From: Candidatus Bathyarchaeota archaeon
Lineage (GTDB): Archaea; Thermoproteota; Bathyarchaeia; TCS64
Direction of reading: 5' to 3'
Length of the DNA stretch: 64,000 nucleotides
Assembly: GCA_963780545.1 (NCBI GenBank)
Contig: CAWACK010000016.1
Coordinates: 8,908 to 72,907, forward strand
The translations under genes were made by a program, and so were the position numbers. The notes under the pieces are model-generated. The model was not told where the DNA came from, did not search any database, and was given only the letters and a program-made list of their open reading frames with translations. Positions 1,537 to 63,383 of this stretch are shown here, one piece after another. How positions within the stretch are numbered: the stretch's first letter is position 1; each line of letters starts with the position of its first letter.

Positions 1537-2805
1537 TTAATATGCCTTCGGCTTATCTCGGGAACCCTCAGCGGTTAGGAGAGCCCCCTCTGGGACATCC
1601 CTATCGACGGTGACACCGGGAGCAATCCATGCACCAGCTCCGACTTTGACCCCGGGATGGATGCTCACGTTGATGCCCGTTTGACAATCATCCCCCATAA
1701 CGATGCCGAGCTTCCTGAAGCCGGTATCGATACGCTCACCTTTTACTGTCATCTTGACGTTTTTATGGTCAAATCGGAGGTTCGCGGTTATGGTGCCAGC
1801 ACCGAGGTTACAACGCTCACCGATGATAGAGTCTCCGACATAGCTGAGGTGGGGAACGGCGGCTTTCTCCATTAGTATAGTGTTTTTGACCTCGCAGCTG
1901 GCACCGACGCGGTTACCTCCAACGAGCGTCGTACCCGCACGGATATAGTTGTTCGGTCCAACATCACAGTCAGGGCCTATGTAAACTGGTCCATCGATAT
2001 AGACGCCACTCCTTACCCTTGCAGTCGGAGCGATATAGACTGGTCCCTCGATGTGTACACTCTCCTCGATTTTTCCCTCTATTTTAGCTTCGAGTCTCGA
2101 TAAGGCCCTCGTGTTCGCCTCTAAGATGTGCCAGGGATGACCGATATCAAGCCAGTCACCGTCGTCCACCATGTGGAGGCGAGCCGAAACGCCTTTTGCG
2201 ATTAGGCTGTTCACCGAGTCGGTGACCTCGTACTCTCCCCTAGGGCTCAACTTTGTCACCTTGATTACATCAAAGATGGCGGCTGGGAAAATGTATATTC
2301 CCGCGTTGGTGACGTTGCTCGGTGCCGCTCCGGGCGAAGGCTTCTCGATTATACCTTGGACCCTATCACCCTGAAGCTTTAAGGCGCCATATAGGTAAGG
2401 GTCTCTTTCGAGCCCGGTGACGGTGAGTTCTCCTTTCTTGTGAGCCTTGACTATCTCTCTCAGGATGCCGGGGCTGAGGTACAGATCACCATTCATTCCG
2501 AGGAACTCCTCACCGTTTACAAAGCTCTCTGCAAACCTGAACGCGTCGGCAGTCCCCTTCATCTCCTCCTGAGTAACATAGCTGAGTTTCAGTCCGAGAG
2601 AGGAGCCATCCCCGAATCGCTTCTTGATTTTCTCCTCCATATAATGGGTGACGACTAAAACCTCCTCTACGCCGGCGTCGGCGACGCCCTTAAGGAGCCA
2701 CTCGAACTGAGGCCTTCCACCTATGGGGATGAGCTGTTTAGGCTTCGTTGATGTTAGTGGTCTAAGCCTCTCCGCCTTCCCAGCGGCTATTATGACTGCC
2801 TTCAT
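1537..2805 (-). CDS. glmU: Bifunctional sugar-1-phosphate nucleotidylyltransferase/acetyltransferase (archaeal GlmU)
   Basis: AAG..ERLRPLT..KPKQL NTP-transferase motif plus C-terminal hexapeptide repeats (HLSYVGDSIIG, NLGAGTITAN). Confidence 0.88.
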   Translation of the reverse strand: MKAVIIAAGKAERLRPLTSTKPKQLIPIGGRPQFEWLLKGVADAGVEEVLVVTHYMEEKIKKRFGDGSSLGLKLSYVTQEEMKGTADAFRFAESFVNGEEFLGMNGDLYLSPGILREIVKAHKKGELTVTGLERDPYLYGALKLQGDRVQGIIEKPSPGAAPSNVTNAGIYIFPAAIFDVIKVTKLSPRGEYEVTDSVNSLIAKGVSARLHMVDDGDWLDIGHPWHILEANTRALSRLEAKIEGKIEESVHIEGPVYIAPTARVRSGVYIDGPVYIGPDCDVGPNNYIRAGTTLVGGNRVGASCEVKNTILMEKAAVPHLSYVGDSIIGERCNLGAGTITANLRFDHKNVKMTVKGERIDTGFRKLGIVMGDDCQTGINVSIHPGVKVGAGAWIAPGVTVDRDVPEGALLTAEGSRDKPKAY

Positions 2806-4146
2806 TTATTTGCCTCCTTGATTAATTCTCTCCCGCTCTCTAACAAGATCTTGGTCACCTTCTCGTCCCTGCCCTCGGCGGTGAGCCTGATAATGGGCTC
2901 GGTGCCAGAGGCGCGTATGAGTATCCAACCCTCAGGGAGCTGAAGACGAATGCCATCGACACGGTTAATGCTCTGCACATCTCGAAAAACCCCTGTGTAC
3001 TGCTTCTCGACGAGTTTCATCGTCTGGACTTTGTCTTTGACAGGGATCTTAGCACTCTCGGTTGGGTACTCTGGTACATCAGCCACGAACTCTGATAGCT
3101 TTTGGTCGCGCTCCTCCAATGCTTTCAGGAGCTTAATGGCGCTTAGGATTCCATCGGGACACATGTTTACCTCTGGTAGGACCCAAGCGCCTATTGGTTC
3201 TCCACCGAATACTGCCTTCCTTCTCTCCATCTCCTCCGTGATATAGGCGTCGCCTACCTTGACACGTATAACCTTGCCCCCAGCTGCCTCAATCATTTCC
3301 TCCATGCACATGGAGGCACCGACGTGGGTGACGACTATGCCTTTTCCGACACGCCCGACGACGTAGCTTGCGTAGGCAGAGAGAAGTCGATCACCGCTAA
3401 CAGGTGTCCCCGTCTCGTCGACGGCCATCATCCTGTCGCCATCGCCGTCGAAGCCGAAGCCAACCTCCGCATCGGTTGCCTTCATATAGGTACCGAGTCT
3501 GCGGAGGTTCTCAGTGGTGGGCTCGGGATCGCCAGCGGGAAAATGGCCGTCTATGTGGCCGTTGATCAATGTTGGGTGGAGCCCAACGGTCATCAAAGGC
3601 ATCTGCTGCTATGGTACTAGTCGCCCCACAGAAGAGGTCACAGGCCACCCTCCACTCTCTCCCAAGCTCCACGCCTTCTTGGAGGGCGTCGAGGTACATC
3701 CATGTGGCCTCAACTTCGTCGTCAGAGCCCACGCCATCCCACGGTGCGTAGTCGAACTCACCACTCTCGATGAGTTCCTCAACCATTTTCTGCTCCTTCT
3801 CGGTGAGGCTCATGCCCCGAGAGTTGAAGACTTTGAAGCCGTTATATTGGGGTGGATTGTGGCTCGCCGAGATAGCTACCCCAACGTCTGATTCGAGCTC
3901 CCGCGTAAGCCAAGCTATCACAGGAGTCGGAAGGACGCCTATGAGCTTGGCGTCGGCCCCGCAGGAGGTTATTCCACTGGATAGGGCTGCCTCCAACATG
4001 GGCCCAGTGACGCGGGTATCCCTCCCAGCAACTATCTCTCCACCCTCATGGATGGTCGCTAAGGCGGATCCGAGTCGCTGAGCCATGATGGGAGTAATCT
4101 CGATGTTAGCAATACCGCGTATACCTGATGAACCGAAGAGCCTCAC
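2802..4146 (-). CDS. glmM: Phosphoglucosamine mutase/phosphohexomutase, split by one extra base near 3594
   Basis: LFGSSGIRG and SASHNP in ORF 3511-4146; FDGDGDR, GGE and IRASGTEP in ORF 2802-3602; span is 3n+1. Confidence 0.85.
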
Positions 4147-4736
4147 CTTGAACGCCTCCCGGGGACGAACTTGCGTAGGGGGTCAACCCTCAAAAGCCTT
4201 TCCAGCTCAGTGAGGGAGAGGCCCCTTTTGACGTCCCCGTATATGTCGCATCTCTCCTCAGTGTATTCTGCGGGGGATCGGACGACGACCTCCACCTCGT
4301 CATGGCCCAGATCAAGCTTGAAGTGGTAAGCGTGTACACCACCCTTGAATATGACCTCCTCCTTTTCCCTGATCCTATAAGAGGAGAGGACGGCTTCGAT
4401 TCTTACCGGGTAATCCGAGAGAGCGACGATGTCTATGTCGCTACCTTGTCTGGCTGTTCCCCTCCAGACGCTCCCTATGAGTCGTGGATTATAATTCCTA
4501 AGTGTGGTCATCACTTCAAGGGCGGTAGTCCTCATCTCCGTGAGTCTCCTCTGCCTCTCTCCACCTTCGAGCTCATCGGCGAGCCTGTCTAACTCGAGAG
4601 CTACTTCGTAGTTGCTAGGGGTTGCCTTGACCCCGAGACTTGAAGCTGCCATCTCCTTAGCCTGAATATACTCCTCGGCCATGCCATTGTAAAGAAGCCT
4701 CGCTGCTTCCCTAGCGACTGATAATCTATCGCCCAA
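4143..4736 (-). CDS. Pol-beta superfamily nucleotidyltransferase
   Basis: GSVWRG..R.GSDIDI motif; overlaps the glmM start (same operon). Confidence 0.8.
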   Translation of the reverse strand: MGDRLSVAREAARLLYNGMAEEYIQAKEMAASSLGVKATPSNYEVALELDRLADELEGGERQRRLTEMRTTALEVMTTLRNYNPRLIGSVWRGTARQGSDIDIVALSDYPVRIEAVLSSYRIREKEEVIFKGGVHAYHFKLDLGHDEVEVVVRSPAEYTEERCDIYGDVKRGLSLTELERLLRVDPLRKFVPGRRSR

Positions 4737-4795: not shown

Positions 4796-5354
4796 CTACT
4801 TGTTGTCCTGTAAAACCTTCTTCGTCACTGTGAGGAGACTATTCGGGCTAACCGGCTTCATCAGAACCTCCTTCACGTCGACAGGTTCGTCCTTAAGCCC
4901 CTCAGCAAGCTTCTCGTAGCCCGTGATCATGACTACCTTCGTCTTCTTCCCCTGCTTCTTAATGATACGGGCAACCTCATCACCATTAATGTCGGGAAGC
5001 TTGATGTCGAGAATGATCAAGATCGTAGCTCTTGTCTTTGGTCTTATGGATGGCTTGCATCCCTGTAGAGGCGACCTCAACTAGGTATCCTACGGTCTCA
5101 AGAATCACTTTGAAGGTCTCAGTTAGGAACTCGTCGTCGTCAACTATCAAGATGCTAGATTTACCGGAGATTACCTCTTCGGCTTCCTTCTTCGCCTCCT
5201 CCATGAGTACTTTGTCCTCGGGCTTCATCTCGCCGGACTCAAGTTTTTCAGAGAGCTTCTCCAACCTCTGGGTGATCTCGTAGAGGCTTTCCTCATGTTC
5301 TTTGAGAATGCTTATGAGAAAGTCTAGGACATCTATTTTTTCCTTCATGCCCAT
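4796..5354 (-). CDS. Response regulator receiver (REC) protein with N-terminal coiled-coil extension, one extra base near 5019
   Basis: ILIVDDD, (D)LIILDIKLPDING, VVMITG and VLMKP across ORFs 4986-5408 and 4796-5080; span is 3n+1. Confidence 0.8.
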
Positions 5355-5411
5355 TACTGAAACCCGATTCACATACGTAGCATGGAATAAAAGCCGTTGT
5401 GGTTCCATGAT

Positions 5412-5437
5412 TCATAAAACTTAAATAAGATTTATGA
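5412..5437. promoter_or_regulatory. Inverted repeat TCATAAA-N12-TTTATGA, candidate transcription-factor site upstream of the REC gene
   Basis: Perfect 7-bp dyad enclosing an AT-rich TATA-like sequence. Confidence 0.35.
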
Positions 5438-5476
5438 GGGTAAGTCCGTTTTCTTCTGTTAACGGTTAATAGAAAA

Positions 5477-5720
5477 GGGAGTGGGGGTTACCGCCTCGGC
5501 GGGTCTCGTCCATGGTCGAGTTTCCTGGGGTGCCCAACGACGGGTTGCAGGCTCCCATCGCCCCGGGGCTCGCGCAAAACTTGCTGCAGGTGGTCCAAGA
5601 CGCCGTATTCGGGTCTTCCCTTATCACAGCGGCTCCGGACGAGGCAGCCAAGTCGGTTGGGTTCATTCGTTGGCGGATGTTTCCTATCCCCCAATTATCC
5701 CAACCCCTATGTTCGCTCCC
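5477..5720 (-). ncRNA. Unidentified structured non-coding RNA, about 245 nt
   Basis: GC-rich island; TTTTAAAA box at 5742-5749; terminal GGGAG/CUCCC stem followed by UUUU; several 5-7 bp helices whose G-U pairs work only on the minus strand; K-turn-like motifs. Confidence 0.7.
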
Positions 5721-5741
5721 AACACAGCAAACTACATCTGC

Positions 5742-5749
5742 TTTTAAAA
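5742..5749 (-). promoter_or_regulatory. TATA box of the putative ncRNA
   Basis: TTTTAAAA about 25 nt upstream of the GGGAG 5' end at 5720. Confidence 0.55.
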
Positions 5750-5854
5750 CGATTCAGGAGCCACCATATAGATGCCTAAAGTGATAGCTGAAACGCGTAT
5801 CAAGGTAAAGTTGGGAAAACCTTATGTTTGCGCCACATCTAGCATTTGTTCATT

Positions 5855-6124
5855 ATGCCTCGTAGAGGTAAAGTCGAGATATACATCGAAGTCCTCGAGA
5901 TTGTTATGAAGGGTGAGGCCAAGCCGACTAGGATTATGTATAGCGCTAACCTATCATGGAAAGTATTTCAGAGTGTCCTAAACAACCTAATCAACCAGGG
6001 TCTCATCACGGAGAACGAAGAACCCGCGGGGAAGGAGAGAGACGTGAAGAGGTACGAGATAACAGAATCGGGAATGAACGTTCTCAGATACTTCAGGAAG
6101 GCTACGATGGCGCTCCCAAAGTAA
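5855..6124 (+). CDS. Small winged helix-turn-helix protein (DUF4364/HTH_45-like regulator)
   Basis: RRGKVEIYIEVL...KPTRIMYSANLSW...L...GLI...YEITESG pattern. Confidence 0.82.
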   Translation: MPRRGKVEIYIEVLEIVMKGEAKPTRIMYSANLSWKVFQSVLNNLINQGLITENEEPAGKERDVKRYEITESGMNVLRYFRKATMALPK

Positions 6125-6167: not shown

Positions 6168-6743
6168 GTGTCTTACGTTTTGTCAGGTCGGGTCGATGCC
6201 GATACGTTGTTTCAGGAGATCAACGCGGTCTTCAAGCGATATGGTGTGGAGAAAGGAATGGGCTTCGTCCCCGATAGGTTAGAGATCACTTTCGAGAGAG
6301 CAACTTCAAATGTATGTGCCTTGGTTTACAAGGAGTTCTTCACCTACCTACCACCAAAAGTTATGGAGATTGCGACCAGTAACGCTGTCGACTTCCTCTC
6401 CAATCTAGGGGTGCCAAAGGAGAAGATCACACTCTTGAAGAGTGGTGTCGAGGTTCACCTAGAGGGAGATGCACGGATCGCTTATTTTCCCATCCTCGAG
6501 ATGCTAATCCAGGATAGGGATATCTCCATGAACTTGGAGCCAGCTATCGACTCCCTTAAGGGTTCGATTAGGTCCCTCATGGGACTTTTCGACTTCAACT
6601 GGAGCTGGGACAAGGAAGCGGAGGAGAGGTGGAGGAGCAGCTTGGCTAAACTCGACGAGATCATCGAGGCCAACCCAGGTATGCAGTGTGAGATAGACGA
6701 GATCGTGAAGCGACATTCCTTAGCGAAAGAGAAGAGTATTTAA
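6168..6743 (+). CDS. Hypothetical protein
   Basis: 191-aa ORF with normal composition, no motif recognised. Confidence 0.6.
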   Translation: MSYVLSGRVDADTLFQEINAVFKRYGVEKGMGFVPDRLEITFERATSNVCALVYKEFFTYLPPKVMEIATSNAVDFLSNLGVPKEKITLLKSGVEVHLEGDARIAYFPILEMLIQDRDISMNLEPAIDSLKGSIRSLMGLFDFNWSWDKEAEERWRSSLAKLDEIIEANPGMQCEIDEIVKRHSLAKEKSI

Positions 6744-63310: not shown

Positions 63311-63383
63311 GGGCTGGTAGATCAGTGGTATGATCGCCTGACTTGCAATCAGGAAGTCGGGGGTTCAAATCCCCCCCAGTCCA
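63311..63383 (+). tRNA. tRNA-Ala (anticodon UGC), intronless, CCA not encoded
   Basis: GGGCTGG/CCAGTCC acceptor with G3-U70, CCTGA-CTTGCAA-TCAGG anticodon arm, GGTTCAAATCC T arm. Confidence 0.96.

Follow-up and report, generated by a model that had tools for sequence, protein, structure and literature searches.

A predicted structured non-coding RNA gene outside the recognised RNA families in a sub-lineage of one Bathyarchaeia genus

The window analysed here, a stretch of 64,000 nucleotides from a Candidatus Bathyarchaeota archaeon, contains a gap of 490 nt between a receiver-domain (response regulator) gene and a divergent gene for a winged-helix protein. Within this gap lies an island that a sequence-only reading had taken for a standalone structured RNA with its own promoter and terminator. 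Therefore, we investigated whether the island is an RNA gene, which strand it would be read from, and whether it belongs to a known RNA family. To our knowledge, very few families of structured non-coding RNA (ncRNA) have been described in Archaea beyond the universal ones, and we are aware of essentially nothing about the RNA biology of the uncultured Bathyarchaeia; a full-text search for literature on Bathyarchaeia ncRNAs yielded no such paper, as far as titles and the openings of abstracts tell. The features of the locus, in window coordinates, are as follows.

5473–5720, minus strand: predicted ncRNA of about 245 nt, from 5' GGGAG to the U-tract (fold, homologues, covariation)
5742–5749, minus strand: TATA box, the palindrome TTTTAAAA, presumed promoter of the RNA (A/T box kept in the five folded homologues)
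5716–5720, minus strand: helix P1, 5' strand GGGAG, partner 5477–5481 (invariant in four of five homologues)
5477–5481, minus strand: helix P1, 3' strand CUCCC, then U-tract 5473–5476 (U-rich tract directly after it in five of five homologues)
5703–5707, minus strand: helix P1b, 5' strand, partner 5484–5488 (double changes at two of five positions, U-A/C-G/A-U and G-C/C-G)
5658–5702, minus strand: hairpin PA, outer stem of 3–4 bp and a variable inner stem-loop (fold and homologue reading)
5647–5656, minus strand: helix P2, 5' strand, partner 5491–5500, including CUUGGC/GCCGAG (two double-change and two one-sided positions)
5636–5645, minus strand: helix P3, 5' strand, partner 5503–5512, including CUCGUCC/GGACGAG (two double-change and three one-sided positions)
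5601–5631, minus strand: hairpin PK, lower stem of 7–9 bp, internal loop, short upper stem and apical AAGAC (fold, covariation)
5587–5598, minus strand: hairpin Ph, 4-bp stem with a conserved ACCA loop (two outer pairs co-vary)
5514–5575, minus strand: domain PD, comprising PD1 (5569–5575 with 5514–5520), an inner stem and hairpin PD3 (5538–5560) (covariation)
5387–5436, minus strand: A/T box (about 5421–5436) and 20-nt leader (5387–5406) of the receiver gene (conserved at all syntenic loci)
4796–5355, minus strand: receiver-domain gene, downstream of the RNA and read in two frames (PF00072, 86.3 bits on the intact orthologue of genome G006)
5849–6124, plus strand: winged-helix protein of the Sso10a family, divergent neighbour (PF14947, 74.1 bits; NF053610, 67.4 bits with a cut-off of 60)

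The outline of the proposed transcript was as the sequence-only reading had described it: a 5' GGGAG (5720–5716) faces a 3' CUCCC (5481–5477), which runs directly into UUUU (5476–5473). The box TTTTAAAA was also found where it had been placed, at 5742–5749, but its distance to GGGAG measures 21 nt instead of the claimed 25 nt or so. A distance of 20–21 nt from the 3' end of the A/T box to GGGAG or GAGAG is found in all five well-folded homologues, and the sequence of the spacer between them is not conserved. The U-tracts are short, with only three or four U, so that read-through into the receiver gene is possible. The closing helix P1 carries one A-C mismatch in the related genome G008 and shows no covariation, and it is therefore neither supported nor refuted. 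The GC richness of the island was borne out but is modest (0.61, against about 0.40–0.50 in the immediate flanks). The absence of a credible open reading frame was confirmed by comparison with G006, from which the element differs by indels of 1, 2, 2, 3 and 3 nt; no frame is open throughout the homologues, and the translated similarity among them is fragmentary and switches frame.

We then compared the helices that had been folded by hand with the minimum-free-energy fold. The helices 5647–5652 with 5495–5500, 5637–5643 with 5505–5511 and 5554–5560 with 5538–5544, together with the hairpin at 5602–5630, all lie at the positions given for them and are all present in that fold. The helix 5699–5705 with 5655–5661 can also be drawn at its given positions, but it appears only partly in the minimum-free-energy fold, and its outer GG more likely pairs in P1b. 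As a continuous stem of 7 bp it was rejected, since it breaks in two metagenome copies (M1 and M2, see below) and in G008, and P1b co-varies instead. The sequence of the window by itself is weak evidence for a structured RNA: the minus-strand fold gave a z-score of -1.78 (-1.85 in a repeat), and 11 of 200 dinucleotide shuffles folded as well. The real support is comparative.

A blastn search of 61 relatives found one clear homologue, in G006 (75% identity over 186 nt), as well as a 34-nt piece at a contig end of G017, the remaining matches being noise. A covariance model, R1, was built from the window and G006; its span on the window is 5470–5722, and it matched in 4 of 71 genomes of the family, all of them in the window's own genus (g1). 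When 185,579 species genomes were scanned for a pattern of three motifs, four stretches emerged; three, all from MAGs of Candidatus Bathyarchaeota, were confirmed by the model, and the fourth was a chance match. Metagenome contigs, scanned with two motifs, yielded 23 stretches, of which the model and orthologous flanking genes confirmed five; one of these is of the G006 type, another (M2) is close to G017, and the remaining three contigs carry a new type, M1. An improved model, R3, run on 151 genomes from 79 genera of the class, recovered only the window's own genome, with 13 candidates scored per genome, a depth at which weak matches may escape. Phage and plasmid collections and a pattern scan of IMG/VR contained no relatives of the element. 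The three M1 contigs (L074, L084 and L087) are identical base for base over 287 nt.

Within the genus, 9 of 18 genomes carry the winged-helix orthologue facing the receiver gene, with 88–92% amino-acid identity, and at all nine of these syntenic loci the long spacer holds the element or a remnant of it. Well-folded copies are those of the window, G006, G008 and G017/M2, in addition to the metagenome type M1. The copy in G002 is recognisable, and those in G016, G003 and G012 are diverged and AT-richer; none of these four gave a folding signal (z from -0.33 to +1.39). These results demonstrated that homologues are detected only at the syntenic locus between the receiver and Sso10a-family genes, in a sub-lineage of one Bathyarchaeia genus. 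A natural deletion variant was seen in G013 (L049, about 1790–2001, plus strand), where the copy is truncated at its 5' side, only the 3' third is kept (22.5 bits with R3), and a new A/T-rich stretch precedes the remnant.

The decisive question was whether the helices are maintained by compensatory changes. In the five well-folded sequences, nine helices were set by coordinates, in part curated by hand, which gave 62 pair positions. Among these, 25 are invariant, 12 show one-sided changes via G-U, and 17 show double changes that keep the pairing, so that compensatory changes are indeed present across five syntenic copies. When all 298 pair cells were counted, 246 were Watson-Crick, 28 G-U, 3 A-C and 21 other, so that standard pairs make up 274 of 298 (92%). 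In a model-fitted alignment of six sequences, 90.8% of the cells pair, compared with 43.1–48.5% when the partners are slid by one to three columns, and double changes occur in 27 of 65 pairs, compared with 4–11 when slid; none of 500 shuffles reached the observed values. All of these covariation figures lean towards structure, as they come from five or six related sequences, hand-curated helices and a model-fitted alignment. The pairwise identity of the RNA is 59–70%, against 54–71% at third codon positions of the neighbouring gene, indicating that the helices persist although their sequence changes at a nearly neutral pace.

Apart from P1 and the outer PA stem, all helices contain double changes. 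These include C-G/U-A and U-A/G-C in P2, where an internal A.G also becomes A-U in G008, and C-G/U-A, A-U/G-C and G-C/U-A in PD1, where three of seven positions are doubly changed; in PD3 the count is four of nine. P3 contains many G-U pairs in M1 and G008, and the lower stem of PK shows two double and three one-sided changes. The outer pairs of Ph change as U-G/C-G/U-A and G-C/A-U, one of them being a U.U mismatch in the window, which also has two mismatches in PD1. Each homologue rebuilds the inner stem of PA from sequence of its own. Because the PD1 strands are displaced by one or two columns between sequences in MAFFT and model-based alignments, PD1 was scored by coordinates only and is absent from model R3. 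The best-conserved sequence of the whole molecule is found in the apical loops, AAGAC in PK, ACCA in Ph and CCUGCAA in PD3 (5545–5553), the last of which is retained in 8 of 10 syntenic copies.

Three further pairings were examined and dropped. RNAalifold proposed a helix between 5573–5578 and the region after PD3, as well as GAG/CUC (5633–5635 with 5518–5520), and both were given up because Ph and PD1 co-vary instead. A pseudoknot between UGCAG after Ph and the PD3 loop has 5 bp in the window, M1 and M2 and 4 bp in G006, but in G008 the loop is changed without a matching change.

We consider it probable that the island is an independently transcribed, structured ncRNA gene of about 245 nt, forming a new family in a sub-lineage of one Bathyarchaeia genus; its product may act in trans as a scaffold. 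The proposal of a standalone structured ncRNA of an unrecognised family thus held up in its main points, with no Rfam match, a conserved TATA spacing, a U-tract after the closing helix and compensatory changes. Transcription would start about 21 nt downstream of TTTTAAAA, at GGGAG, and would stop at the U-tract directly after the closing helix. The RNA is predicted to fold into the closing helices P1 and P1b, followed by the side hairpin PA and the long stem P2–P3, which would open into a multiloop with three hairpins bearing AAGAC, ACCA and CCUGCAA. Acting in trans, the fast-evolving helices may hold these three conserved loops in a fixed geometry, in which a partner, most likely a protein, could recognise them. 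We favour a trans-acting scaffold for two reasons: sequence is retained in the loops but drifts in the helices, and the genome shows no enrichment for the complement of the main loop. The complement of the 10-mer of the CCUGCAA loop occurs 9 times in the genome, compared with 14 for the reversed control, which gives no support for pairing in trans, and the only exact match for the A-variant in this search is the RNA gene itself. Long antisense pairing is probably not the mode of action.

The main alternative is that the RNA serves the receiver-domain gene in cis, as a leader akin to a riboswitch or attenuator, in which the closing helix beside the U-tract would decide on read-through. At every locus the receiver gene comes directly after the RNA in the same orientation, the three or four U of the tract would probably terminate transcription leakily, and a multi-helix junction with conserved loops is also typical of ligand-binding aptamers. 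However, the start codon lies about 120 nt beyond the 3' end of the RNA, and at all syntenic loci a conserved A/T box and the 20-nt leader are found in between. In G007 the receiver gene (70% identity) is retained, and its promoter and leader can be recognised, but the AT-rich spacer is unrelated and contains no RNA. We infer a separate transcript because the conserved A/T box and leader precede the receiver gene and G007 has both without the RNA. The element also matches no Rfam riboswitch family, and in the window the receiver gene is frameshifted while the RNA is intact. A leader acting in cis is therefore an unlikely reading, although it is the one that competes most seriously with a separate RNA gene.

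The leader itself, GGAACCACAACGGCUUUUAU (5387–5406, minus strand), is near-invariant at the syntenic loci, where it is better conserved than the RNA, and has a recognisable variant in G007. It occurs once in the genome, besides one chance-like match with three mismatches. RNAduplex runs of the RNA against the receiver-gene leader returned full-length duplexes that are physically meaningless and were discarded.

In the window, the two frames of the receiver gene overlap (4986–5408 and 4796–5080), with the break near 5019–5050. Comparison with the intact 185-aa orthologue in G006 revealed one extra base just past the codons for Y-D-L, and the gene could be a genuine pseudogene or carry an indel introduced by assembly. 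On the same strand, at 2802–4146, a gene that is presumably phosphoglucosamine-mutase-like, judging from its translation, is also split into two overlapping frames (211 and 266 aa, overlap 3511–3602). That two genes are frameshifted in a span of about 2.5 kb points to indel errors in the assembly, which comprises 28 contigs. Such errors may have affected the RNA of the window too, perhaps explaining its two mismatches in PD1.

Another possibility is that the element is a relic, a structured element that once functioned or was acquired horizontally and now drifts with no present function in this genome. The narrow distribution (1 of the 151 class genomes sampled and 4 of the 71 family genomes) would fit such a history, as would the decayed or truncated copies in G002, G012, G016, G003 and G013, a primary-sequence divergence near that of third codon positions, and a window copy with mismatches in Ph and PD1 and a weak z-score. 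However, the 17 double and 12 one-sided changes spread over five lineages are not expected under drift at 59–70% identity, and the promoter box, its spacing and the three loop sequences are all conserved. We therefore give a relic little credence, less than a leader in cis. The decayed and truncated copies in sister species bear on the favoured RNA gene in another way, as they suggest that it is dispensable or young. The function of the RNA appears not to be essential, given the eroded copies of G002, G016, G003 and G012 and the truncated copy of G013.

To determine the strand, we examined wobble pairs, folding scores and models in both orientations. The sequence-only reading had fixed the orientation by G-U pairs that would become A-C mismatches on the plus strand, and this argument extends to the homologues, in which the minus strand has 28 G-U against 3 A-C; four sequences outside the derivation of the structure gave 33 against 8. 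The minus strand also gave the better folding z-score in four of the five folded homologues, with minus and plus values of -4.68 and -3.81 for G006, -2.23 and -0.22 for M1, -3.86 and -1.42 for M2, and -1.03 and -0.47 for G008. The window was the exception (-1.85 and -3.03), its plus strand folding better at -108 kcal/mol (z = -2.76; -3.03 is the repeat). Models were less clear-cut. A mirror-image plus-strand model, R2, scored 51.6 bits on M2 against 42.5 for R1, and 37.0 against 38.2 on G002; R1 exceeded R2 by about 15 bits each in M1 and G008 only, and the RNAalifold energies of the two strands were similar. It is highly probable, judging from these comparisons, that the functional RNA lies on the minus strand.

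A functional RNA on the plus strand would draw on the better plus-strand fold of the window and the R2 score on M2, and also on the palindromic nature of the TATA box and on two mismatches, an A-C in P1 of G008 and a C-A in P3 of the window, that would become G-U. Set against the wobble counts and the z-scores of four homologues, it is very improbable, and a reading of the sequence upstream of a plus-strand start found no conserved A/T box at a suitable distance. Moreover, the start codon of the divergent winged-helix gene is closely preceded by a separate conserved box resembling a promoter, which leaves the TTTTAAAA box free to serve the RNA. At about 5813–5832 on the plus strand, some 20–28 nt before the start codon of the Sso10a-family gene, all nine loci share a purine-rich box and, after it, a box of the TTATGT type, consistent with a promoter for a leaderless mRNA.

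It remained to be asked whether the element belongs to a known class. A covariance-model scan of the whole window against the 4227 models of Rfam 15 gave no match on the element at the gathering threshold, with riboswitch, ribozyme, group II intron and C/D-box models included, in agreement with the failure of the sequence-only reading to recognise a family. The window's sole match at that level is a tRNA gene (63311–63383, plus strand, 71.2 bits). When the region 5350–5850 was searched at E ≤ 10, two chance-level matches appeared, with 14.4 and 10.2 bits (gathering scores 43 and 62), and the same search of the four homologous loci gave nothing on the RNA, both weak matches there lying outside it. 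A resemblance to domain V of group II introns or to a cobalamin riboswitch box was discarded, since no Rfam model supports either. The element belongs to no recognised RNA family, a statement that covers family membership alone.

RNase P and SRP RNA had already been doubted on motif grounds, and we can now confirm that neither model matches the element at E ≤ 10. The genome's canonical RNase P RNA lies on contig C20 (182.6 bits with RF00373, gathering score 84) and its canonical SRP RNA on contig C10 (129.4 bits with RF01857, a model that covers the helix-8 motif, gathering score 96.5), and blastn of the element against both found no similarity beyond words of 7–11 nt. Archaeal SRP RNA resembles the element in size class (about 250–310 nt), paired ends, a long central stem ending in hairpins with conserved loops, and, in the manner of a housekeeping gene, an own promoter, which for the element is predicted; in contrast, SRP RNA is universal, whereas the element is confined to part of one genus and decayed in some of its members. 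Archaeal RNase P RNA likewise shares a length of about 250–300 nt, long-range helices and, by prediction, an own transcription unit, but its model has no match on the element and only those short words are in common.

The hairpin at 5602–5630 had been likened to a box C/D K-turn bound by L7Ae, and this likeness did not stand. We defined a K-turn as a canonical stem, a 3-nt bulge and then tandem sheared G.A/A.G pairs opening a non-canonical stem, and this layout was found in none of the five homologues. A pattern scan inside PK left four of the five without any candidate that has both strands in the hairpin, and the sole candidate, in G008, would require a hairpin loop of 2 nt and is not admissible. 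Read by hand, the internal loop of PK contains conserved purines, but the bases in excess are not on the side of the G-A where a K-turn would have them. The window's heptamer resembling box C lacks conservation and is changed in G006, M1 and M2. With K-turn RNAs bound by L7Ae (box C/D and H/ACA), the element shares an archaeal host and one hairpin with a purine-rich internal loop. We rejected a box C/D sRNA, as the element has about 245 nt with long-range helices compared with about 50–70 nt, roughly four times the length, its heptamer varies and no C/D-box model matches; a string of independent H/ACA hairpins is excluded because the long-range helices co-vary. It is hardly credible that the element represents a highly diverged form of a known class, for example another SRP-like or RNase P-like RNA, a K-turn RNA bound by L7Ae, or an RNA derived from the box C/D type, since its loosely SRP-like layout (paired ends, long stem, terminal hairpins) and the G.A-rich internal-loop sequence of the 5601–5631 hairpin are outweighed by the failure of all 4227 Rfam models on the window and four homologues, by the canonical SRP and RNase P RNAs elsewhere in the genome, and by the missing K-turn layout and unconserved heptamer.

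Closer company for the favoured new RNA family is found among the orphan structured ncRNAs discovered by comparative genomics, such as the archaeal Hgc RNAs and the bacterial raiA, OLE, ROOL and GOLLD RNAs, which are lineage-restricted and often suspected of binding proteins or ligands. Like these, the element was recognised through covariation and conserved loops and junctions and is restricted to one lineage. It differs in having no sequence or structure match to those in Rfam 15, in its much narrower distribution and in the decayed copies visible in sister species.

A bolder interpretation, tentative and in our view doubtful, is that the element is the first representative of a new archaeal class of functional RNA, which would serve as the RNA component of an unknown ribonucleoprotein or sense a ligand. 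The conserved loops AAGAC, ACCA and CCUGCAA would then be its active or binding surface, and the gene would have been caught in birth and decay within one genus. If this were true, the locus would provide a natural series for the origin and loss of complex structured RNAs. In one genus the same locus occurs in well-folded, eroded, truncated and empty form, which offers a rare view of RNA-gene turnover, and the element is a candidate for a new Rfam family and a candidate ribonucleoprotein or sensor RNA, with a narrow distribution that limits its general importance.

Several minor observations were made at this and neighbouring loci. The Ph region of the G002 copy (L044) has 12 identical nucleotides, GAUCACCUCCUA, in common with the 3' end of 16S rRNA (L094, 1495–1510, minus strand), the anti-Shine-Dalgarno sequence included. 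The folded homologues match only the first 8–9 nt of GAUCACCUCCUA, and mimicry of the 16S rRNA 3' end was rejected because the anti-Shine-Dalgarno core is not conserved in them; the match is probably a coincidence. Co-oriented with the Sso10a-family gene is an open reading frame of 191 aa (6168–6743, plus strand), which is conserved in G006 and whose product fell into no family of Pfam or NCBIfam and gave no usable Atlas match. On the other side, at 4143–4736 on the minus strand, lies a gene that is syntenic with the receiver gene in G006; its 197-aa product contains a minimal nucleotidyltransferase motif (PF01909, 23.6 bits) and exceeds typical MNT antitoxins in size.
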